Source: Candidatus Peribacter riflensis (lineage in GTDB: Bacteria; Patescibacteriota; Gracilibacteria; Peribacterales; Peribacteraceae). Taken from it: a DNA stretch of 32,000 bases. Below, in pieces: positions 4,523 through 29,846 of the stretch (positions within the stretch are counted from its first letter, which is position 1; every line of letters begins with the position of its first letter). The notes below the pieces were generated by a model, which saw nothing but the letters and a program-made list of their open reading frames with translations, ran no database searches and had not been told where the DNA came from. The stretch lies in contig CP013062.1 in the NCBI GenBank assembly GCA_001430755.1, positions 660,001 through 692,000 on the forward strand. The letters run 5' to 3'. Position numbers and translations under genes: made by a program.

Positions 4523-5356
4523 ATGTACTCGATCTTGAGAGGAGTGCGACTACAATCTGTTTCTGTGAAAGGAAGGATCACTCTTCTGGCTCTCGCCACC
4601 CTCGCTCTCTTCGGATGTACTGCGAAAGATCCTGAGCCAGTGGTTCCGGTGAGCGGCGGAAAGAGTGCCACTATCGTGCTGGATTCCCTCGCGGCAGTGC
4701 CAAAGGGTTCTGCGCGTCCGAGCGGCACTCTGGGCATCTTCATCGCCACCTATCTCGCCCAGGGATTCATCATGCAAGTGGACTCAGCCACACAGGGTTT
4801 GCAGCAGATCCTCATGATCGTCCGTGGTCAGGAACAGCCGCTCGGAGACGAGACCTTCGCGCTCCTCCAAACACTGGGAGATATCCTTTCGGTGGATGTC
4901 ATCGATCTGCTCAACCGGAGCAATAACCGCATAGAAACACTCGACCAGTACACACTGGGCCTCAAAAACGCCATCGACAACGGCACGCGCCGCGCAGGCG
5001 AACTCCAAACGGCACTCGAAACCCTCGCCACACAGAAGAAAGAACAGCGCCAGACGGTGCGCGACATCGAACGTGCGCAGAAAGAAGCCATTGCCGCCAA
5101 GGATTATTCCACCGCGAGCTCGAAAGACACAGAGCTCCTCAAGGCGCAGACCGCCCTCTCGCAGACGGAACTCACCGAAGACCAGACCAAAGACGCCGAG
5201 CGGCAACTCTCTGATCTGCTGGAACTGGCAGAGAAACGTCTCTCCGCCATCGAGAAGAACCGGGAAATCCTCCTTTCGGGGCTCAAAATCACCGATCCGC
5301 AGGGCCTGAAAGACCTGGGATTGGTGCAGGAATCCTCGCGCAGGAGCTTTCGGTAG
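4523..5356 (+). CDS. Coiled-coil lipoprotein, function unknown, directly upstream of the VirB4-like ATPase gene
   Basis: Internal ATG at 4523 gives MYSILRGVRLQSVSVKGRITLLALATLALFGC, a signal peptide plus lipobox. The C-terminal half is rich in E, K, Q and L and looks like a coiled coil. Confidence 0.6.
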   Translation: MYSILRGVRLQSVSVKGRITLLALATLALFGCTAKDPEPVVPVSGGKSATIVLDSLAAVPKGSARPSGTLGIFIATYLAQGFIMQVDSATQGLQQILMIVRGQEQPLGDETFALLQTLGDILSVDVIDLLNRSNNRIETLDQYTLGLKNAIDNGTRRAGELQTALETLATQKKEQRQTVRDIERAQKEAIAAKDYSTASSKDTELLKAQTALSQTELTEDQTKDAERQLSDLLELAEKRLSAIEKNREILLSGLKITDPQGLKDLGLVQESSRRSFR

Positions 5357-5371
5357 GCCAATCGGTCAGAA

Positions 5372-5400
5372 TTGCCACGGTTGGCCGTTTTTGCTATAAT
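5372..5400 (+). promoter_or_regulatory. Sigma-70-type promoter for the VirB4-like ATPase gene
   Basis: TTGCCA (5372-5377), a 17-nt spacer, then TATAAT (5395-5400) preceded by TG at 5392-5393 (an extended -10). The ATG lies 13 nt downstream. Confidence 0.5.
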
Positions 5401-5413
5401 AAAGAGATTTCTT

Positions 5414-7561
5414 ATGTCTGCGCCTCTGGCCGCCACGCAACCGGCAAACGTCAATCTGCTCCTCGTCGCCATCGATGAACTTCTGGGCATCCAGAAGATC
5501 GCCGAGGACGCGATGCTCTCGGCAAGTGAGAGTGAGCGGGAATTCACCGCAGATGAGCGTGCGGCGCTCCGGCGCTACGAGGAAGGTCTGCAGAAAACAC
5601 TCGATATCATCGCGCCGGCAGGGATGGAGATTAAGCGCGACGAACTGGTCCTGAATGACCTCCATTCCCGCACCCTCTTCGTCTACAACTGGCCGAACTA
5701 CGCTTTCCCCAACTGGCTCTCTGAGACCGTGAACTTCGACGCCCAGTTCGAGATCGCCCACTACATCTACCCGACGACGAACAAGGCCATCATGAAGATG
5801 CTGCGCAAGAAAGTGGCCGAGATGCGCTCTAGTATCCGCATGCTCGAGCAGCGCGGCATCGTGCGCGATCCGGCGCTGGAAGCGGCCCTGCAGGATGCCG
5901 AGGAACTGCGCGACCTTCTGGCACGCGGCAGAGAGAAACTGTTCCAGTTCGGCATGTACATCACCATCTACTCGGAGGACATCGTGAAGCTGAAGAAGCT
6001 GCAGACGGACCTCGAGTCGATTCTGGGAGGCAAGCTGATGCTCACGAAGCCGGCGATGTTCCAGATGGAACACGGATGGATTTCGACGCTCCCCCTCTGT
6101 CTGGATGAGCTCGACATCAACCGCAACATGAACACGTCGCCGATCGCGACGAGCTTTCCCTTCAGTAGCCCCGACCTCACGTCCGATCACGGCATCCTGT
6201 ACGGCATCAACCGCCACAACGACTCGCTGGTGATCTTCGACCGCTTCGACCTGCCCAATGCCAACGCGACGGTCTTCGCCACCTCCGGCGCCGGAAAATC
6301 CTTCACGGTGAAACTCGAGATCCTGCGCTCGCTCATGTTCGGAACAGATGTCTTCGTCATCGACCCGGAGAACGAGTACGTGGAGCTGAGCAAGACCGTG
6401 GGCGGGACGTTCATTCCCCTCTCCCTCCAGAGCTCTAACCGCATCAACCCCTTCGATCTGCCCAAAGCGGTGCGCGGCGAAGAGGCGCTGACCGGTGAGA
6501 CACTCCGCTCCGCAGCCATCACGCTCCACGGACTCTTCAAGCTCATGCTCGGCACGCTCACACCTGCCGAAGACGGTGTGCTGGACAAAGCGATTCTCGA
6601 CACCTACGCCCTCAAGGGCATCACGCTCACGACGCCCGACCCCGCGGCCATCACGCCGCCGACCCTCGGGGATCTCGTGGACGTGCTCAAGACCACGGAG
6701 GGCGGCGAGCACATGGCCCAGACGCTCAAAAAGTACACCGAAGGCAGCTTCGCCGGCCTCTTTGACCAGCCGACGAACGTGGAGCTCAACAACACCATGA
6801 TCGTCTTCCAGATCCGCGACCTGGAGGAACAGCTCCGGCCCATCGCGATGTACGTCGTCTTGAACTTCCTGTGGAACCGTATCCGCGCCGACTTCAAGAA
6901 GCGCTTCCTCGTCATCGACGAGGCCTGGAACCTGATGCAGCACGAAGATTCCGCGCGCTTCCTCTACGGGCTCATCAAGCGCGCCCGCAAGTACTGGCTG
7001 GGCGTCACCACGATCACGCAGGATATCGAGGACTTCGTGAACTCCCCGTACGGAAAACCCATCATCACCAATGCCTCGCTCCAGATTCTGCTCAAGCAGT
7101 CGGCCACGGCCGTGGATAACCTGCAGAAGCTCTTCTACCTGACGGACGGCGAGAAGTACCTGCTCCTCAATTCCGACGTGGGACAAGGGCTCTTCTTCGC
7201 CGGCAACAAGCACGTGGCGATTCAGGTCGTCGCGAGCCCGAAGGAGCAATCCATCATCACCACGAAACCGGAGGAAGTGGCTGCCATGCTCACCTACAGG
7301 CGCGAAGAGAAAGATCGCCAGAAGAAACCGCTCATCCCGGAGACGATTCAGCCCGTGATGCCAACAACGGAGGGCACCATTGATATTTCACAGTCGGCCC
7401 CGGCTGCCGAAACACCACAGACAGAAGCCAAGGCACCTGCAGAGGAACAGCCGGCCGGTACACCCACCGCTCCGACCTCCGAACCAGTTATGCCTCCGGC
7501 TGAGGAGAAGAAGCCGGAGCCTCCTCCTGCTCAACCACCTTCCAGCGCACCTCAGGCCTGA
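5414..7561 (+). CDS. virB4: VirB4/TraE-like T4SS ATPase lacking the extreme N-terminal module, with a Pro-rich C-terminal tail
   Basis: Walker A ATSGAGKS and Walker B FLVIDEAWNLM. The IIAPAGMEIK...RTLFVYNWPNYAFPNWL region is typical of Gram-positive VirB4 proteins. The last 70 aa or so are low-complexity (P, A, E). The ORF track start at 5372 lies inside the promoter, so 5414 is preferred. Confidence 0.85.
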   Translation: MSAPLAATQPANVNLLLVAIDELLGIQKIAEDAMLSASESEREFTADERAALRRYEEGLQKTLDIIAPAGMEIKRDELVLNDLHSRTLFVYNWPNYAFPNWLSETVNFDAQFEIAHYIYPTTNKAIMKMLRKKVAEMRSSIRMLEQRGIVRDPALEAALQDAEELRDLLARGREKLFQFGMYITIYSEDIVKLKKLQTDLESILGGKLMLTKPAMFQMEHGWISTLPLCLDELDINRNMNTSPIATSFPFSSPDLTSDHGILYGINRHNDSLVIFDRFDLPNANATVFATSGAGKSFTVKLEILRSLMFGTDVFVIDPENEYVELSKTVGGTFIPLSLQSSNRINPFDLPKAVRGEEALTGETLRSAAITLHGLFKLMLGTLTPAEDGVLDKAILDTYALKGITLTTPDPAAITPPTLGDLVDVLKTTEGGEHMAQTLKKYTEGSFAGLFDQPTNVELNNTMIVFQIRDLEEQLRPIAMYVVLNFLWNRIRADFKKRFLVIDEAWNLMQHEDSARFLYGLIKRARKYWLGVTTITQDIEDFVNSPYGKPIITNASLQILLKQSATAVDNLQKLFYLTDGEKYLLLNSDVGQGLFFAGNKHVAIQVVASPKEQSIITTKPEEVAAMLTYRREEKDRQKKPLIPETIQPVMPTTEGTIDISQSAPAAETPQTEAKAPAEEQPAGTPTAPTSEPVMPPAEEKKPEPPPAQPPSSAPQA

Positions 7562-12060: not shown

Positions 12061-12411
12061 TTATCCGCCCGTGATCCCCACGATCAGCCCACGCACGTAC
12101 ATGATGATCGACCACCCCATAATCGCAAGCACGAGCCCGCCGAGCGCGTACTGAATGATCTTCTTCGCCTCGTCCTTTGCCCCCTCACCGCCGATCACCA
12201 GCTTCACGGACGCATACAGCACCGCCAGCACGGCTCCGCCGCCCACGAGCTGAAAGATGAACGTCGCCGTGCGGCCGGCCAGATCCATGAGGAACCCCTG
12301 CCCCTCGCCGCACGCTCCGAAGGTGGAACAGTAGATCCCCCACACGCCGGGGTCGGCGGCCAGGGCGTGCTCCGAGAAGATGCCGAGAATGGCAGAGAGG
12401 ATGTCGGTCAC
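12061..12411 (-). CDS. T4SS pilin-like protein (VirB2/TrbC-like; two TM helices, Cys pair)
   Basis: The GTG start at 12411 overlaps the upstream stop (GTGA). N-terminus VTDILSAILGIFSEHALA, then CSTFGAC, then two hydrophobic helices separated by GGEGAKDEAKK. Confidence 0.6.
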   Translation of the reverse strand: MTDILSAILGIFSEHALAADPGVWGIYCSTFGACGEGQGFLMDLAGRTATFIFQLVGGGAVLAVLYASVKLVIGGEGAKDEAKKIIQYALGGLVLAIMGWSIIMYVRGLIVGITGG

Positions 12412-12995
12412 AGTCCCAGGTTGAGAACGGCGTGGACGATCGCATTTGCGGCATTGATGATGAGCGCGCCGACGATGGCCCACAGGATCATGCTGAGCGC
12501 CTTCTGGTACGCGTCGGATTTGCCCCACGCGATAACGAGGCGGATCGCGGCGTAGATGACGATGCCCACGAAGGCCACGTTCAGAAGTGAGAGAATGGCG
12601 CTGACGGCGGCAGCCATGAAATCGAGATGCGGCGTGGTCGCTGAGGCGAGAGGCGCGGCACGGGTCTGGACGAAGGTGACAATCGCCTGCGAGGCGAGCG
12701 CGAGCATGAAGCCGCCGACCGCGAACAGAATGGAGTTCTTTCCTTTTCCGGCCGCCCCGTCATCGCCCGCGCTCAGGAACATCTGCACGCCGCCGATGAT
12801 GACAAAGAGCACGGCTCCGCCCCCCGCGAGTCCCACGAGCAGTGAACCGATCGGCGGAATGAACTGAACCGCCATGTTCACGGGGGTGCAGCCCCCCGGT
12901 ACACCCACGCACGGATCCTGCGCCGGAGGGGCTGCGAGGGCGACTTCCACGAAGAGCGAGAGAAGCCGGTACGAGAATGTAGAGAGAAGGGTCAC
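12408..12995 (-). CDS. Tandem (fused double) T4SS pilin-like protein
   Basis: The GTG start at 12995 overlaps the upstream stop (GTGA). Signal-like VTLLSTFSYRLLSLFVEVALA, then CVGVPGGC, then two consecutive TM-loop-TM modules with loops SAGDDGAAGKGKN and AWGKSDAYQKA. Confidence 0.6.
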   Translation of the reverse strand: MTLLSTFSYRLLSLFVEVALAAPPAQDPCVGVPGGCTPVNMAVQFIPPIGSLLVGLAGGGAVLFVIIGGVQMFLSAGDDGAAGKGKNSILFAVGGFMLALASQAIVTFVQTRAAPLASATTPHLDFMAAAVSAILSLLNVAFVGIVIYAAIRLVIAWGKSDAYQKALSMILWAIVGALIINAANAIVHAVLNLGL

Positions 12996-13387
12996 TGGAA
13001 GAACATGGAATTGAGCGTGCGCAGGATGAACCCGGCGAAGAGCAGAATGACAATGCCCGTGATCGCCCACCGCATATGACCGATCCCCTTGGCGCGCTGG
13101 CCGCTATCCGCCCCCGAGAGCATGATCATGAATCCGCCGAGGAGCACCCACAAGACACAGAGACCCATAGCCACATAGATGAGCCACGTCGCGGCATCGT
13201 TGAAGTACGAGAGAAACGTTCCGAAGCCAGGTTGCACTGGAATGTTATTCTGATTCCCGAGCGGCGCGAGCAGGTCGATGCCCCCCTGATTACGCTGCGG
13301 CATTCCCCCCTGTGCAAAAACGGCAAGCGGCACCGCGAAGGTTGCAAGAACGAGCAGGCCGGAGAGCAGGGATTCACGCAGATGCAT
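12992..13387 (-). CDS. T4SS pilin-like protein (first gene of the pilin operon)
   Basis: The internal ATG at 13387 gives MHLRESLLSGLLVLATFAVPLAVFAQG (signal peptide). The C-terminal part has two TM helices separated by SGADSGQRAKG. Confidence 0.6.
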   Translation of the reverse strand: MHLRESLLSGLLVLATFAVPLAVFAQGGMPQRNQGGIDLLAPLGNQNNIPVQPGFGTFLSYFNDAATWLIYVAMGLCVLWVLLGGFMIMLSGADSGQRAKGIGHMRWAITGIVILLFAGFILRTLNSMFFQ

Positions 13388-13393
13388 CCAATG

Positions 13394-13402
13394 ATTATAG
13401 CA
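13394..13402 (-). promoter_or_regulatory. Extended -10 (TGcTATAAT) for the pilin operon, probably giving a leaderless transcript
   Basis: The minus strand reads TGCTATAAT-cattgg-ATG, so only 6 nt separate the -10 from the start codon at 13387. Confidence 0.45.
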
Positions 13403-13495
13403 CAATCCGTGTTCGCAGGCGATACCCCGAAGTGGCTGCAGAAAGAGGTTCCTTGCTTGCACTCCTCCCTCTCCGTCCGTAGGATTTCCCCACAT

Positions 13496-13716: not shown

Positions 13717-13793
13717 GCGGATGTAGCTCAGTTGGCTAGAGCGTCGCCTTGCCAAGGCGAAGGTCGCGGGTTCGAACCCCGTCATCCGCTCCA
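13717..13793 (+). tRNA. tRNA-Gly (anticodon GCC), CCA encoded
   Basis: Manual cloverleaf: acceptor GCGGATG/CATCCGC, D arm GCTC/GAGC, anticodon loop TTGCCAA, T arm GCGGG-TTCGAAC-CCCGT. Confidence 0.95.
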
Positions 13794-14299: not shown

Positions 14300-14560
14300 T
14301 CAAGGGAAGCATCTCAACGTTTCTCGTAACATCAATTTCAACCCCCGCTTCCCTGCAGTGGTTTTGAGATACCGTTCCCGCCGCAGGGCATCGGCCTTGT
14401 TGGTGTAACACTCATGAAAGATGAGCTTCCATGGTCGATATGCTTTCGTGGAAATGACTTCGCCCCGGTTATGGGTTGCCAGCCGTCGACCCAGATCTTC
14501 GGTGAAGCCAACGTAGAGACTGCCGGTAGATATGCTGCGCAGTACGTAGACGATGAACAT
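14300..14560 (-). CDS. Small stand-alone GIY-YIG nuclease-domain protein
   Basis: 86 aa. VYVLRSISTGSLYVGFTEDLGRRLATHN...ALRRERYLK fits the GIY-YIG motifs of the stand-alone GIY-YIG domain (UPF0213-like) family. Confidence 0.85.
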   Translation of the reverse strand: MFIVYVLRSISTGSLYVGFTEDLGRRLATHNRGEVISTKAYRPWKLIFHECYTNKADALRRERYLKTTAGKRGLKLMLRETLRCFP

Positions 14561-14695: not shown

Positions 14696-14769
14696 TGGAG
14701 CGGGATACGAGAATCGAACTCGCGTCTCAAGCTTGGGAAGCTTGCATACTACCACTGTACTAATCCCGC
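14696..14769 (-). tRNA. tRNA-Gly (anticodon CCC), CCA encoded
   Basis: The minus strand reads GCGGGAT-TA-GTAC-AGTGGTA-GTAT-G-CAAGC-TTCCCAA-GCTTG-AGAC-GCGAG-TTCGATT-CTCGT-ATCCCGC-T-CCA. Confidence 0.95.
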
Positions 14770-14825: not shown

Positions 14826-15428
14826 CTATTTCCGGCTACCCTTTAACCATCCCGCCACACGATCGCGTGCGCTGCGAATCGTTCTCACAATCCTCGGCTT
14901 GAGCCCGAGAAGCTGCTCCACTCTCTCGCGCAGAGCCTCCTTGGTCAGGGCAAGTTTGTCTTCGACGGTGTCGCCCCCTCTGAGGAGTGATTGAAATTGC
15001 TGTATTTCTGCGTCTGTCAGGGGACGTGCCCGAATCGTTCCTCTCATGCCGTTCCCCTCAATCCAATATTGAGGTTCCGTCGGCTCAACGTATGCATACG
15101 TGTAGCGGCGGTCGTCCGTCACGCCTGTCTTTTTCTGGAGAGTGCGAAGGTTATGAACAAATCCCGGAAGCGAGAGGCCTCCGATCCTCTGTCCGATGAC
15201 ATCCGGTTCATAGTGAGTGTTGTAGAATTTCGCAGTCCCCACGAAGTCTGTGTGTGCAACCGGTTGCTCGAGTGGGGCTTCTTCACCGTAAATACCAAAG
15301 CCTTGGTCCGTTACGCGGTCGGGACGAATGATGCGGTGCGTGAGCGTTCTCTCCTGCGCGAAGACCTCGACGTAGCCGGGTTCACCGCGTTTACGTTCGT
15401 TTTCGGCAAATTCCTGTGGAGCTTTCAT
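14826..15428 (-). CDS. Hypothetical protein (200 aa), no family recognised
   Basis: Long ORF between two tRNA genes with a consensus promoter immediately upstream. It has visibly more A/T-ending codons than neighbouring genes. Confidence 0.6.
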   Translation of the reverse strand: MKAPQEFAENERKRGEPGYVEVFAQERTLTHRIIRPDRVTDQGFGIYGEEAPLEQPVAHTDFVGTAKFYNTHYEPDVIGQRIGGLSLPGFVHNLRTLQKKTGVTDDRRYTYAYVEPTEPQYWIEGNGMRGTIRARPLTDAEIQQFQSLLRGGDTVEDKLALTKEALRERVEQLLGLKPRIVRTIRSARDRVAGWLKGSRK

Positions 15429-15501: not shown

Positions 15502-15578
15502 TGGTGCGCCCGGCGGGATTTGAACCCACAGCCTTCAGCTTCGGAGGCTGACGCTCTATCCAGTTGAGCTACGGGCGC
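15502..15578 (-). tRNA. tRNA-Arg (anticodon CCG), CCA encoded
   Basis: The minus strand reads GCGCCCG-TA-GCTC-AACTGGATA-GAGC-G-TCAGC-CTCCGAA-GCTGA-AGGCT-GTGGG-TTCAAAT-CCCGC-CGGGCGC-A-CCA. Confidence 0.95.
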
Positions 15579-17050: not shown

Positions 17051-17126
17051 GGGTCAGTAGCTCAGTTGGTAGAGCAGTGCCCTTTTAAGGCATTGGTCGT
17101 GGGTTCGAATCCCACCTGACCCACCA
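17051..17126 (+). tRNA. tRNA-Lys (anticodon TTT), CCA encoded
   Basis: GGGTCAG-TA-GCTC-AGTTGGTA-GAGC-A-GTGCC-CTTTTAA-GGCAT-TGGTC-GTGGG-TTCGAAT-CCCAC-CTGACCC-A-CCA. Confidence 0.95.
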
Positions 17127-17315: not shown

Positions 17316-18491
17316 ATGAAAGTCGCTCTCGTCCATGAGTTGCTCACCATGAAAGGCGGTGCCGAGAAGGTACTGAGAATTCTTGCTGCGATGTTTCCCG
17401 ACGCGCCCATCTACACGCTGCTCTATGACGAAAAGAAGCTCGGAGAGTGGTTCCCGAAGGAGCGAGTCCAGACGAGCGCAGTGCAGAACTCCCTCCTGCA
17501 TGCTACGTACTCCGTGCTTGAAAAAGCCAACAACCACCACCTCTACCTCTCGCACTTCCCCGCTGCAGTCGAGGCGTGGGATTTCTCCGATTTCGATCTG
17601 GTGATCTCGAGCTCCTCGGCCTTCGCGCACGGCATCATCACGAACGGAAAACCCAGGCACCTCTGCTACGTCCACTCCCCTGCCCGCTACCTGTGGGATC
17701 GGACACACGACGTGCTGGAGCGTGCGGGCCACGGAATCCTCGGTCCCCTCCGCAGGAAATTTCTCGAACGCACTTTTCACAAGTTGCGCATCTGGGATAG
17801 CGAAGCAGCCGACCGTCCGGATCACCTCATCGCTGCTTCAAAGGAAGTGCAGCGCCGGATTGAGCTCTATTGGAGACGGGAATCCAATGTGATTTATCCG
17901 TCGGTCGATGACTTCTGGTTCGCAACAAACCCTCACTCCACTCCTCACCCTCACCCTACCCCTCACCCTACCCCTAACCCTCACCCTAACCCTACCCCCT
18001 ACGCCCTCGTCGTCTCGACACTCGTTCCCTACAAGCGCATCGACCTCGCGATCAGAGCCTGCGAGCAGGCCAGCATCTCTTTGAAAATCGTCGGGGAAGG
18101 ACCGGCCATGACGAGCCTCAAACGCATGGCAGGGAAGAACACGGAGTTCTACGGCTACCGCCAATCAGACGAGCTCAAAGATCTCTACCGTTCGGCGAAG
18201 CTCACCATCGTGCCTGGCGAGGAGGATTTTAACCTGGTGGCCTTGGAATCGATGGCCTGTGGCACGCCGGTGCTGGCCTACCGGGCAGGCGGCCCGCTCG
18301 AAACCGTCGTCGAGGGAAAAACAGGTGCGTTCTTCGATGAGCCCACAGCCGAATCACTCGCGCAGGCACTGCAAAAATTCAAGCGGAGTGATTTCGATTC
18401 AACGGCGTGTCGTGCGCAGGCAGAGGAATTCTCACGGAAAAAATTTGAAGCGCAGATCCAACACGCCATTCAAAGTGTGATGGAAAAGTAA
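17316..18491 (+). CDS. GT4-family (group 1) glycosyltransferase with a low-complexity interdomain insert
   Basis: N-terminus MKVALVHELLTMKGGAEKV and the C-terminal EX7E region EEDFNLVALESMACGTPVLAYRAGGPLETV. Confidence 0.85.
   Translation: MKVALVHELLTMKGGAEKVLRILAAMFPDAPIYTLLYDEKKLGEWFPKERVQTSAVQNSLLHATYSVLEKANNHHLYLSHFPAAVEAWDFSDFDLVISSSSAFAHGIITNGKPRHLCYVHSPARYLWDRTHDVLERAGHGILGPLRRKFLERTFHKLRIWDSEAADRPDHLIAASKEVQRRIELYWRRESNVIYPSVDDFWFATNPHSTPHPHPTPHPTPNPHPNPTPYALVVSTLVPYKRIDLAIRACEQASISLKIVGEGPAMTSLKRMAGKNTEFYGYRQSDELKDLYRSAKLTIVPGEEDFNLVALESMACGTPVLAYRAGGPLETVVEGKTGAFFDEPTAESLAQALQKFKRSDFDSTACRAQAEEFSRKKFEAQIQHAIQSVMEK
17930..18000. repeat. Hexanucleotide CCCTNN tandem repeat inside the glycosyltransferase CDS
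   Basis: An uninterrupted run of eight CCCTNN units (CCCTCA, CCCTAC, CCCTAA), flanked by degenerate ones, encodes PHPHPTPHPTPNPHPNPTP. The complementary strand is a run of GGG tracts with 3-nt spacers. Confidence 0.85.
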
Positions 18492-19782: not shown

Positions 19783-19912
19783 TGGCTCAGAGGATAGCAC
19801 ACATTCCTGAGTGATTTTTGTCCTCTCCATGGGCCCCAATTCCGCTGACAAATCGCCAAGCGATAAATCGTACAATCGCCAATCAGTCTTGCGCTACACT
19901 ACCTCACAGTCG

Positions 19913-20632
19913 ATGCAACATTCTTCCCTCCTGCTCACCGGCGGATTCCTGCTCGCAACTCTCGCGTTCGGCGCGGCAGATGCGCTCCTCGTCGAGCCTT
20001 TTCCCGTCGTCCCCGCAGAACAGGAATCTTCTTCCTCCGTGAGCGAAGTTCCGGCGGAGCCGGTGCCCCCATCCCCGGAAGAAACCCCGCCCCCCTCCCC
20101 CGAGGAATCGTCGACCCCTCTGCCAGAGACACCGATGCCCGAACCTGTGGAAATCACTCCCCCTCCTGAGCCATCTGCTGAGCCTCCTCCCGAAGGGGCT
20201 GTCGCCAAGCGATCGGGTATCGACACACTGGGCATCGTGACGAATCAGGGATTCACCGCAGAAGAGACGACGCAGAAAAGCCTGCTTTCAGCCATCGTGC
20301 AAGATCCGTCACAGGTGACGACACGCGTCCTCCTGCTCGAAGGCGACCGGGCAGGCCTCCTCGCCTGGATCGAAACCTCGAACGTCAAACAGGTCTTCCT
20401 CGTGCTGAAAGAATCCCTGCACACGCTCTTCTCGCCCGAAGTGCGCGATCTGCTGGATGAAATCCAGGCACCCGCGGGCAAGCCGATCCGCAACTTCCTC
20501 ACCTTCTTCGACCCGCAACTGAGTGAGGAGCGGTTCGTCTTCATCCGCATCCGGGAGCGGCTCTACGAGTTCCACATCGCCCCCGGAAAAGACGAAGCCA
20601 TGTACAGATTGGTGGAGGAGCTGACGGAGTAG
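19913..20632 (+). CDS. Secreted or anchored protein with a Pro/Glu-rich spacer, function unknown
   Basis: The internal ATG at 19913 gives [24 protein letters not shown] (signal-like). A PE-rich low-complexity region follows, then a globular C-terminal domain of about 140 aa. Confidence 0.55.
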
Positions 20633-21220: not shown

Positions 21221-21964
21221 ATGATCATGGTTAGATCATTGCTTTCGCCATTCCGCAATGGATTTCTCGTGCGAATGGCACTTCGGGGCCGTAAGCTTCG
21301 TGGGATTCCTCCCCCTGCACCCATGAACGCCGCTTCCCCGCTCACGTTCTTCCTGAGTCCGATCGGAGTGTTCTACTCCGTAACGGTTCCTTTCCTGCTC
21401 CTGCTCATCTTCTCGCTCATCATCCTCGCGAGTGCCTCGGTGCCGGGTGCGAAGACAGGCAAGGTGGCCCTGGCTGCCTTCCACTACATCATGCAGGGCG
21501 TCGGCATCGTGCTCATGACCATAGGGGCAATCCCCACGCTCGTGAGCGTACTCGGTGGCCCTCCGTACCCCGGACGCATCTACATGAGTTTGCTCTGGGT
21601 CTTCCTCGCCGGAGGAGCGCTCTTCCTGTGGCATGAACAGTGCACGCAGAAAATCGAGCGCGCGTCGGTGGCCGTCGTGCATGCCCTCTTCGTCACCACC
21701 GTGAAGACGATTGGATACGCCGTCTCCCTCTTCTCGGCCCTCGCCCTCCTCATTACCATCGCCCTGGGTCAGTACCGCCCAAACTGGTGGGTGTCGCCGG
21801 TGATCCTCTTCCTCTTCGGCGTGCTGCTCTTCTGGAGCGCCAAAGAGAGTGATGCCGCAGAACCCTCCTTTCAGTCCGCTGCGCTCCACCCGGCCCACAA
21901 AGGCCACAAGAAGACCAAGAGTCGCGGCTGGTTCGGCTTTCGTCTCTTCGGCAGGCGCGCCTAG
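21221..21964 (+). CDS. Polytopic membrane protein of unknown function lying between rplK and rplA
   Basis: 247-aa ORF with 6-7 hydrophobic segments and a basic C-terminal tail. The start is uncertain (21221, 21275 or 21323). The antisense 331-aa ORF looks like a GC artefact. Confidence 0.55.
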   Translation: MIMVRSLLSPFRNGFLVRMALRGRKLRGIPPPAPMNAASPLTFFLSPIGVFYSVTVPFLLLLIFSLIILASASVPGAKTGKVALAAFHYIMQGVGIVLMTIGAIPTLVSVLGGPPYPGRIYMSLLWVFLAGGALFLWHEQCTQKIERASVAVVHALFVTTVKTIGYAVSLFSALALLITIALGQYRPNWWVSPVILFLFGVLLFWSAKESDAAEPSFQSAALHPAHKGHKKTKSRGWFGFRLFGRRA

Positions 21965-28277: not shown

Positions 28278-28400
28278 AACCGTTCGCATCGCCGAATACT
28301 GCGCCCAGAGCGCAGCGCCTGCACGTTTGTACAATATATGATCATGTCATAAATTTAGGATGTAACAATGCTCCTCCCCGTTCAGAAAAGGCTCAAAACG

Positions 28401-28409
28401 TGGTAGAAT
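28401..28409 (+). promoter_or_regulatory. Extended -10 (TGgTAGAAT) upstream of the PrgI-like gene
   Basis: TAGAAT at 28404-28409 is preceded by TGg. ATG codons follow at 28411 (1 nt away) and 28420 (10 nt away). An alternative upstream promoter is TTGTAC-17-TAAATT at 28327-28355. Confidence 0.4.
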
Positions 28410-28419
28410 AATGAGATTT

Positions 28420-29076
28420 ATGCCGATCGAACCCGTCAAGATTCCGCAGAACGTGTACGTCGAAGACCGCATCGTCGGTCCCGTCACGTTGCGCCAACTC
28501 ATCATCCTGCTGGCCACGGGAGGATTCAGCTACGCCATTTGGACCGCAGCCAAGAACCAACTGGGCGCCTCGAGCCTCACCCTCACCGTCATCTGCTGGA
28601 TCCCCTTCCTGATCGGCGTGGTCTTCGCCTTCGTGCGGATTCAGGGAATCGGCCTCATGCGATTCATTCTGCTCATGATGGAAAAGATGGAAAAGCCGAC
28701 CATCCGTCAGTGGGCTCCCCGCCGCGGCATCTCGATCAACTTTCAGTATTTCTCCGCAGCCGAAGACGCAGCGGACAAGGCGAAGAAACTGGTCGTGCAG
28801 CCCCACCGCGAAAAGCTGGAAGAGCTGAGCGCCCTGCTCGATCGAGGGCCGCTCGTGGCTGCGGAGAAGAGCGAAGCACCCGCAACAGCCCTCCCCCTCT
28901 CTGACACGCAGAACCCGCAACGCCCGGTGGATCCCACTCGCATCCGCGCCAACGGAACAGAGCACGCTTCTCCGCTCGATGACATCTTCACGCGAACGGA
29001 AAAGAAAGAACAGGAGTCGGCCCAACCAGGCGCCAAGACACTTCAGGATATTCTTCCTCCCCCCGCCACCCGATGA
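28420..29076 (+). CDS. PrgI/VirB3-like T4SS membrane protein with a disordered C-terminal half
   Basis: N-terminus PIEPVKIPQNVYVEDRIVGPVTLRQLIILLATGG followed by two TM helices, as recalled for the PrgI family (VirB3 analogue). An alternative start is at 28411. Confidence 0.6.
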   Translation: MPIEPVKIPQNVYVEDRIVGPVTLRQLIILLATGGFSYAIWTAAKNQLGASSLTLTVICWIPFLIGVVFAFVRIQGIGLMRFILLMMEKMEKPTIRQWAPRRGISINFQYFSAAEDAADKAKKLVVQPHREKLEELSALLDRGPLVAAEKSEAPATALPLSDTQNPQRPVDPTRIRANGTEHASPLDDIFTRTEKKEQESAQPGAKTLQDILPPPATR

Positions 29077-29846
29077 CTCCGGATGTTTCCGATCAGATGG
29101 CCCACAGCGAAGATCACGCATCCGAAATGCGGCACGCCGGCAAGAGGCCGAAGGATACCGTGCGTAACCGCAAGGCGCTCTCCAAGGCCGCAACCCAGCG
29201 GTTCCTCCCCATTGCCGAAGTCCGCAATGACACCGTGATACTGAAGAATGGCGGACTGCGCGCCGTGCTCTCGGTCGAGGCGCTCAACTTCAACCTGAAG
29301 AGTGAGACGGAGCAGAAAGGTATCATCGCCGGCTATCAATCCTTCGTGAACACGCTCAACTTCCCCATTCAGATCGTCATCCGATCGACGAAGATCAACA
29401 TTGACCCGTACATCGAGCAACTGCGTGCACGTGCGAAGGATCAGCAGAACGAACTGCTCAGGGACCAGACGAACGAATATGCCACCTTCATCGAACGCAT
29501 CGTGGAGGCAGCAGACATCATGCAGAAGCGCTTCTTCGTTGTTGTCCCTCTCGATGACCACCCCAAGCGCAAATCACTCATCGCCACCTTCCTGGAATGG
29601 ATCGGCATCGATGACACGACGAGCAAGGCCCTGGCGCGCCACCAGATGTTCGAGAAGCGCATCGCCCCCCTGCGTGACCGCATCAACCTCGTGGAAGCGG
29701 GATTGAACAGCGTCGGTCTCATGACACGGCGCCTCTCGACCCGCGACCTTCTGGAGCTCTACTACCAGGTCTACAACCCTTCGACGAGCCAGGAACAGAA
29801 GCTGAATCAGATTTCTGATCTGAATACGGCGGAGTTAGTACTGTGA
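29073..29846 (+). CDS. Stand-alone VirB4 N-terminal module (no ATPase domain)
   Basis: FLPIAEVRNDTVILKNGGLRAVLSVEALNFNLKSETEQKGIIAGYQSF...IQIVI and RRLSTRDLLELYYQVYNP resemble the first 250 aa or so of Gram-positive VirB4/TraE/PrgJ proteins. Its ATG overlaps the PrgI-like stop (ATGA). Confidence 0.6.
   Translation: MTPDVSDQMAHSEDHASEMRHAGKRPKDTVRNRKALSKAATQRFLPIAEVRNDTVILKNGGLRAVLSVEALNFNLKSETEQKGIIAGYQSFVNTLNFPIQIVIRSTKINIDPYIEQLRARAKDQQNELLRDQTNEYATFIERIVEAADIMQKRFFVVVPLDDHPKRKSLIATFLEWIGIDDTTSKALARHQMFEKRIAPLRDRINLVEAGLNSVGLMTRRLSTRDLLELYYQVYNPSTSQEQKLNQISDLNTAELVL

Follow-up and report, generated by a model that had tools for sequence, protein, structure and literature searches.

Whether a VirB4 motor can be encoded by two genes that lie far apart on one chromosome is the question raised by a stretch of DNA from Candidatus Peribacter riflensis (contig CP013062.1, positions 660,001–692,000 of the forward strand; 32,000 nucleotides, hereafter the window), which carries genes of a type IV secretion system (T4SS). 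A first-pass annotation, made from the sequence alone, had proposed that a PrgI/VirB3-like gene is coupled to a gene for the VirB4 N-terminal module only (here B4N), that the ATPase part (here B4C) lies 21.5 kb off, and that the two products tile one canonical VirB4. The coordinates of the two products on hidden Markov models (HMMs) proved complementary, the split VirB4 with distant halves was confirmed as real and conserved, and the earlier interpretation was supported. The layout had already been essentially described for this bacterial group in 2025, and the N-module belongs to a named TrsD/TraC-like family; the finding is confirmatory and not a discovery. What is added here is a residue-level tiling, a fusion/fission-tolerant boundary, and the strict order-wide conservation of both dispersed loci.

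B4N (29073–29846, plus strand, 257 aa) was identified by HMM searches, BLASTP, and fold comparison as a free-standing VirB4 N-terminal module of the TrsD/PF26593 “TraC-like” family. It shares 100% identity with a protein from Candidatus Peribacteria bacterium RIFOXYC1_FULL_58_8 and ends without an ATPase domain, as first annotated, no P-loop or ATPase motif being present. B4N matches positions 98–233 of the 894-position NCBIfam model VirB4_plasma (E 4.9e-13) and the TrsD/TraD model NF041427 (E 2.1e-7; 31 bits against a curated cutoff of 200), and the Pfam family PF26593 is precomputed on a 100%-identical protein (P0001) and on all 120 listed B4N homologues; B4N is thus placed in the Pfam family but below the narrower NCBIfam subfamily. 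Among 730 close homologues, the best 120 are all 228–302 aa long and lack an ATPase domain. A profile built from 21 orthologues retrieved 3,346 representatives, 425 of them at E<1e-30, and the best 150 of these matches are nearly all 200–440 aa in length, with one protein of 898 aa (P0269). The 21 orthologues, with identity down to 55%, have 60 invariant columns, and the orthologues share start and stop positions as well as a conserved C-terminus. B4N is under strong purifying selection, with a dN/dS of 0.06–0.17 over the whole open reading frame (ORF).

Searches of PDB sequences with the single B4N sequence and with a profile HMM returned chance matches only (e.g., apolipoprotein A-IV, E 0.15–0.26), and because the sequence link to solved VirB4 structures is so weak, only fold comparison helped. 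When an AlphaFold2 (AF2) model of B4N with a predicted local distance difference test (pLDDT) value of 65 was used for a Foldseek search of the PDB, a check that the annotation had proposed, the 14 best matches were all chains of R388 TrwK/VirB4; their probabilities were 0.89–1.0, but their E-values ranged from 5e-3 to 8e-2 and their template modelling (TM) score was about 0.35. The annotation had also described the N-module as resembling the first part of PrgJ. The resemblance to VirB4 N-termini in general was borne out by the VirB4_plasma match, whereas the comparison of a B4N profile with the N-terminus of PrgJ of pCF10 by hhalign was not significant (E 0.58).

B4C (5414–7561, plus strand) corresponds to the rest of VirB4, as judged from HMM, PDB, and hhalign comparisons, and its start at ATG 5414 is supported by an alignment of 16 orthologues. 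The protein consists of the second half of the VirB4 N-terminal domain (residues ~55–250), a P-loop ATPase domain (~258–616) in which the Walker A and B motifs SGAGKS and VIDEAW are seen, and a Pro/Glu-rich disordered tail. It exceeds the cutoff of the NCBIfam CD1110 VirB4 model (350.6 bits, cutoff 325; positions 170–734 of 752, E 1.8e-104) and matches positions 292–893 of 894 of VirB4_plasma, Pfam P-loop_TraG (E 3.7e-26), the crystallized VirB4 C-terminal domain of PDB entry 4AG5 (E 5.9e-48), and TrwK. In addition, a B4C profile covers residues 160–776 of PrgJ in hhalign (probability 99.65). The VirB4 family models are matched only from model position 170–292 on, in agreement with the annotation that this product lacks the extreme N-terminus, and B4C is not a one-piece VirB4 because the complete N-terminal domain is not in the same polypeptide. 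None of the best 120 B4C homologues carries the N-module domain, and the named sources among them are all Peregrinibacteria/Peribacteria or unclassified bacteria. The C-terminal tail (~7290–7558, plus strand), a low-complexity segment of ~90 residues rich in Pro, Glu, and Ala, varies widely among orthologues in both sequence and length (0 to >200 residues).

On two natural one-piece VirB4 proteins, B4N and B4C align side by side without overlap, as had been proposed. In BLASTP alignments with a VirB4-like protein from a Bacillus mycoides plasmid (831 aa), B4N takes up residues 26–216 and B4C residues 218–820, and the junction is seamless. On the one-piece Patescibacteria relative P0269 (898 aa), B4N occupies residues 11–223 (35% identity, E 1e-40) and B4C residues 323–893 (49% identity), the intervening residues 224–322 being a Pro-rich linker. 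Every model that is matched by both products gives coordinates in order and without overlap, namely VirB4_plasma (98–233 for B4N and 292–893 for B4C), SCO6880 (242–295 and 301–477), the TraC-F-type model (123–189 and 292–785), and Pfam TraC_F_IV (67–182 and 276–375). Judged from these alignments, B4N is the first ~215 residues of a one-piece VirB4 and B4C is the remainder. The sequence evidence confirms the tiling, and the fold comparison lends it weak support.

In species-representative genomes, 161 relatives were found by a scan, from which 80 loci were kept; the taxon given for each is Peribacteria, Peregrinibacteria, or of an unresolved Patescibacteria type, with the exception of one bin named Kiritimatiellales. 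B4N is present in all 80 loci, and a B4C homologue lies within 10 kb of it in none of them (0/80); unlike its counterparts in pGO1 and most Patescibacteria, B4N does not directly precede the VirB4 ATPase gene. The gene order around B4N is AI-2E transporter, ClpC, PrgI, B4N, S1, and HIT, with ClpC and S1 each flanking B4N in 76 of the 80 loci and PrgI lying upstream in 77. The B4C locus is likewise conserved on three contigs, where FemAB, SH3/deacetylase, ArgRS, an ~280-aa protein, B4C, and DHH are followed by RbfA, Fmt, a PurA-like protein, MetRS, and three T4SS pilins. On these contigs (248–475 kb), which contain both halves, B4C precedes B4N by 27–34 kb and shares its strand. The same order and strand are seen in the window, where the intergenic gap of 21,512 nt (21.5 kb) is taken up by housekeeping genes, as the annotation had stated.

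Split VirB4 proteins also occur elsewhere, with adjacent genes. Saccharibacteria GCA_009783235.1 has overlapping genes for PrgI (230 aa), a TraC-like protein (381 aa), and an ATPase (605 aa); a Pontibacillus plasmid encodes a 274-aa N-module and then a 621-aa “CD1110 family VirB4”; and a Miltoncostaea plasmid encodes PrgI, a 337-aa N-module, and a 661-aa DUF87 protein. These split proteins align to B4N or B4C as expected. In Berkelbacteria, Saccharimonadales, and other Patescibacteria, one-piece forms of ~860–910 aa are common, and a 582-aa protein of split length from this group shares 83% identity with the fused P0269; a fused form is also found in Bacillus. Both arrangements, two adjacent genes and a fusion, are represented among Saccharibacteria, Berkelbacteria, Bacillota, and Actinomycetota. 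Because fused, adjacent-split, and dispersed-split forms all occur, the B4N/B4C boundary is evolutionarily labile. The annotation had considered that the apparatus could be lineage-specific, which holds for the dispersal but not for the split: the Peribacteria lineage is distinguished only by the long-range separation.

Two of these relatives may be described by their surroundings. The Saccharibacteria trio (L088, 3624–7240) is close to the replication origin, with dnaA, dnaN, and recF a few kb away, and this position agrees with the published proximity of Patescibacteria T4SS genes to dnaA in many cases. P0269 is encoded on a metagenome contig (L086, 1–17612) in a compact cluster with the order 1241-aa protein, 309-aa protein, PrgI, VirB4 (898 aa), 465-aa protein, 1428-aa protein, and SLT-domain protein, which resembles a self-contained T4SS island with very large proteins of unknown kind.

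The gene preceding B4N (28420–29076, plus strand; ORF opening at 28411) encodes a PrgI/VirB3-like membrane protein. Its product matches Pfam PrgI (PF12666; E 3.3e-10, 40.8 bits, gathering cutoff 27), as expected from the family assignment in the annotation, and hydrophobic segments are evident in the translation. The gene is coupled to the N-module gene and not to the ATPase half: within ccgATGAct at 29070–29078, the TGA of the PrgI-like gene (29074–29076) overlaps the B4N ATG at 29073, which is the ATGA overlap (29073–29076) noted before. The annotated start at 28420 is preferred over the first ATG at 28411 because homologues align mostly from residue 4 of the window protein and a TG-extended −10 ends at 28409. 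This −10 belongs to a promoter-like site, TTCAGA-17-TAGAAT (28381–28409, plus strand; consensus match only, 9/12). A second site, TTGCCA-17-TATAAT (5372–5400, plus strand; consensus match only, 11/12), also has a TG-extended −10 and ends 13 nt ahead of the B4C start codon, so that the TGn-extended −10 claimed for each unit is found at both sites as a pattern match. As both elements end just 10–13 nt before the start codons, their placement suggests that the two T4SS transcription units may give rise to leaderless or near-leaderless mRNAs.

Directly upstream of B4C, a gene for a putative lipoprotein of ~277 aa with a coiled-coil (4523–5356, plus strand) shows a lipobox-like LALFGC in its translation. 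No Pfam, NCBIfam, or PHROG family was found for this protein; a gene of 275–283 aa stands at its position in three other Peribacteria contigs, in one case with a PspA_IM30 match, and the product is a candidate accessory component of the T4SS. Further along, three VirB2-like T4SS pilin genes are encoded on the minus strand within 12061–13495 (12061–12528, 12408–13070, and 12992–13495), with Pfam T4SS_pilin E-values of 4.3e-4, 6.6e-11 (two stretches in the middle ORF), and 1.4e-9, respectively. The annotation had counted four pilin genes; the number is corrected to three because the middle ORF holds two T4SS_pilin stretches. In three other genomes, a three-pilin array has the corresponding position with respect to B4C. 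With the two tandem domains of the middle gene (12408–13070, minus strand), four pilin domains are distributed over three genes.

Peribacterales are taken here to belong to the GTDB class Gracilibacteria, and one Peribacteria-type B4N locus (L023) is labelled Gracilibacteria; on account of this taxonomy and this label, the “Gracilibacteria class” of the 2025 analysis of Patescibacteria T4SSs is considered to include Peribacterales. In that analysis, TrsD, with 2,272 homologues, is the most abundant T4SS component of Patescibacteria (Quiñonero-Coronel et al. 2025, Microb Genom, PMC12102498). TrsD is remotely homologous to the N-terminal portion of VirB4, is found together with VirB4 in 2,209 Patescibacteria-clade genomes, and usually adjoins virB4, “with the notable exception” of Gracilibacteria, in which VirB3 homologues are unlinked too (4.7% near virB4) and VirB6 is absent (PMC12102498). 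It is also listed as essential in Southlakia epibionticum (PMC12102498), where its gene adjoins virB4, and the Patescibacteria T4SSs are the first T4SSs reported to be essential for their carrier bacterium (PMC12857230). According to the same 2025 review, the N-terminal domains of VirB4 are membrane-embedded and make contacts with VirB3 and VirB8 (PMC12857230). An explicit description of TrsD and VirB4 as a split gene was not found in literature searches, and TrsD is not mentioned in the main text of Guglielmini et al. 2014.

Taken together, the window most probably contains a chromosomal Patescibacteria-type T4SS whose VirB4 motor is made of two polypeptides, B4N and B4C, that are reassembled. 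PrgI and B4N would be produced from one message, translationally coupled by the overlapping stop and start codons, and PrgI may act as a VirB3-like membrane anchor, to which B4N would most likely bind at the membrane, as the VirB4 N-terminal domain is touched by VirB3 in solved T4SS structures. B4C, which lies 21.5 kb upstream beside the conserved lipoprotein gene and near the VirB2-like pilin array, would be expressed from a separate promoter-like site. B4N could then dock non-covalently on the N-terminal region of B4C to give a complete VirB4 protomer, and the rebuilt protomers may oligomerize to form the motor serving the VirB2-like pilins. The cut falls at a fission-tolerant boundary; in one-piece relatives, the two parts are joined there directly or through a long disordered linker.

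Several points weigh against this model. The binding of B4N to B4C is a prediction from sequence, and as the two genes belong to separate transcription units, they need not be co-expressed in stoichiometric amounts. The AF2 model of B4N is only moderate, its Foldseek E-values and TM score are weak, and the AF2 model of the natural fusion P0269 (pLDDT 53.6, predicted TM score 0.36) is too poor to reveal how the domains pack. The TrsD score of B4N is far under the NCBIfam cutoff, and B4N is not significantly similar to the N-terminal part of PrgJ, which has been studied experimentally. In the archaeal parallel CedB/CedD, moreover, a stable hetero-oligomer could not be purified (PMC11868833).

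The main rival explanation regards B4N as an independent, TrsD-like accessory protein that shares only ancestry with the VirB4 N-terminus and acts with PrgI in another role, e.g., membrane scaffolding or regulation, while B4C works alone as an N-truncated VirB4. B4C, however, lacks exactly the segment that B4N represents, and the 216/218 junction on the one-piece protein makes the two complementary and not redundant; fused and split versions interconvert among close relatives, and TrsD occurs together with VirB4 in about 97% of TrsD-bearing genomes (PMC12102498). An accessory role would nevertheless fit the fact that TrsD is without an assigned function in the published analysis (PMC12102498), the distance of 21–34 kb between genes with separate promoter-like sites, the NCBIfam TrsD and VirB4 matches of B4N, which are well under the curated cutoffs, and the observation that CedB and CedD formed only homo-oligomers in vitro (PMC11868833). 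Because the products are exactly complementary and the fused and split forms interconvert, this explanation is disfavored and appears rather improbable.

Far less credible is the idea that the genes are left over from an integrated conjugative element and still act in DNA conjugation, with genes for the coupling protein and the relaxase at other sites of the genome. The nearest relatives outside the candidate phyla radiation are monoderm conjugation ATPases (CD1110, PrgJ, and plasmid VirB4 types), and homologues of the type IV coupling protein (T4CP) are often far from virB4 in Patescibacteria (PMC12102498). However, both loci are set among housekeeping genes with a synteny that is fixed order-wide, and the ORFs of the 32-kb window yielded no domain of a T4CP (VirD4/TcpA), relaxase, or integrase; in the substantial ORFs scanned there, domains of VirD4, relaxase, VirB6, and VirB1 were all lacking, as the annotation had stated. 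In addition, just 109 relaxases were found in 103 Patescibacteria genomes, and it is because of this scarcity that a non-conjugative role of the Patescibacteria T4SSs was inferred by the authors (PMC12102498), with which the suggestion of a non-conjugative apparatus in the annotation agrees; the system of the window may likewise serve host interaction. Finally, the notion that the split is an artefact, i.e., a chimeric assembly or a decaying, pseudogenized VirB4 with an N-terminal remnant, can be dismissed with near certainty even though the window comes from a metagenome-assembled genome, because the PrgI–B4N context recurs in 80 independently assembled species genomes, the B4C context, relative order, and strand are the same on the three long contigs (the synteny check suggested against misassembly), and dN/dS is low (0.06–0.17) over the whole B4N ORF, with a C-terminus conserved among orthologues.

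For the two-polypeptide motor itself, a further and rather doubtful proposal is that VirB4 fission in Peribacterales constitutes a control point, at which separately regulated halves govern the assembly of an essential non-conjugative T4SS. PrgI and B4N may in this case be kept in the ClpC–PrgI–B4N–S1 housekeeping neighborhood, and the motor half, the lipoprotein, and the pilins in another. If true, the arrangement would represent a trans-assembled secretion motor and not a neutral gene fission.

The remainder of the window (G+C 54–64%) is mostly composed of housekeeping genes, including those for ArgRS, RbfA, Fmt, MetRS, TatD, RuvB, the ribosomal proteins L11, L1, and S1, Dus, ClpC, and HIT, together with an AI-2E transporter gene and four tRNA genes. 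Pfam, NCBIfam, and PHROG scans of the window genes confirmed no VirB6 or VirB8 candidate, as the 277-aa, 273-aa, and 247-aa genes match no family in them. The genes rplK and rplA are usually neighbors; in the window, a 247-aa polytopic membrane ORF (21221–21964, plus strand) without a Pfam or PHROG match lies between rplK (L11, 20715–21191) and rplA (L1, 22062–22859), and it is a candidate for VirB6, which is reported to be undetectable in this class. A bitopic 273-aa ORF (19811–20632, plus strand) for which no Pfam, NCBIfam, or PHROG family was matched has one hydrophobic segment, a Pro-rich spacer, and a C-terminal domain of ~140 residues, and by this predicted topology it is a candidate VirB8-like protein. 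The tRNA genes (13717–13793, 14696–14769, 15502–15578, and 17051–17126) mark a tRNA-rich stretch that also has a cupin gene and a 200-aa orphan ORF (14826–15428), and an 86-aa stand-alone GIY-YIG nuclease-domain protein (14300–14560, minus strand) adjoins tRNA-Gly genes there. A group-1 glycosyltransferase (17316–18491, plus strand) carries a low-complexity insert rich in His, Pro, Thr, and Asn, TPHPHPTPHPTPNPHPNPTP, between its two Rossmann-like halves.

If TrsD is understood as the first half of the VirB4 N-terminal domain, separated from the rest, a concrete structural role is provided for the commonest T4SS component of Patescibacteria, and the short VirB4 proteins of this group are accounted for. 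This reading predicts a ternary contact of PrgI, TrsD, and VirB4, for which the genetically tractable Saccharibacteria could be used. For annotation, it means that an incomplete or degraded T4SS should not be assumed where a short VirB4 is accompanied by a “hypothetical” or “TraC family” gene at a distance.

Among known systems, the Patescibacteria T4SS shares with the window a Patescibacteria-clade VirB4, TrsD, PrgI/VirB3, a VirB2-like pilin array, and the lack of a nearby relaxase (PMC12102498). In the window, TrsD, PrgI, and three pilins were found with no relaxase in 32 kb, and VirB4 is placed in this clade by the sources of its homologues. On the other hand, the published analysis treats TrsD as a separate component without an assigned function and contains neither a residue-level tiling of TrsD and a short VirB4 nor the fixed ClpC–PrgI–TrsD–S1 context and constant same-strand spacing of 21–34 kb found here (PMC12102498). 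The relaxase and VirD4/TcpA that characterize conjugative systems of mating-pair formation class FATA (MPF-FATA) were not found among the ORFs of the window. Presumably, TrsD–TrsE of the staphylococcal plasmids pGO1 and pSK41 represents an MPF-FATA subclass (NF041427) with an N-module followed by an ATPase that lacks it. This pair and the systems of Pontibacillus, Miltoncostaea, and Saccharibacteria resemble the window in having a PrgI/VirB3-like gene, a small N-module, and an ATPase without the module; their genes, however, are adjacent and often overlapping within one operon, whereas they are 21.5 kb apart here.

One-piece VirB4 proteins of monoderms (PrgJ, CD1110, the B. mycoides DUF87 protein, and the ~890-aa forms of Berkelbacteria) have the same domains in the same order as B4N plus B4C, and their corresponding part is 30–49% identical to B4C, although they are single polypeptides, unlike the proteins of the window; residues 1–159 of PrgJ have no detectable similarity to B4N. 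The dispersed rickettsial vir homologue (Rvh) T4SS is comparable in that its chromosomal genes lie in scattered islands unlinked to conjugation, a known exception to clustering (PMC12102498). It differs in being a diderm MPF-T system with duplicated components. The Rvh VirB4 is not known to be split. The archaeal CedB and CedD are a further parallel, as these two proteins have different parts of the VirB4 N-terminal domain and were proposed to provide the complete domain together (PMC11868833). Each of them, however, keeps an ATPase domain of its own, whereas the ATPase is confined to one half in the window, and for this reason the Ced proteins are regarded as paralogues and the VirB4 of the window as a true fission.

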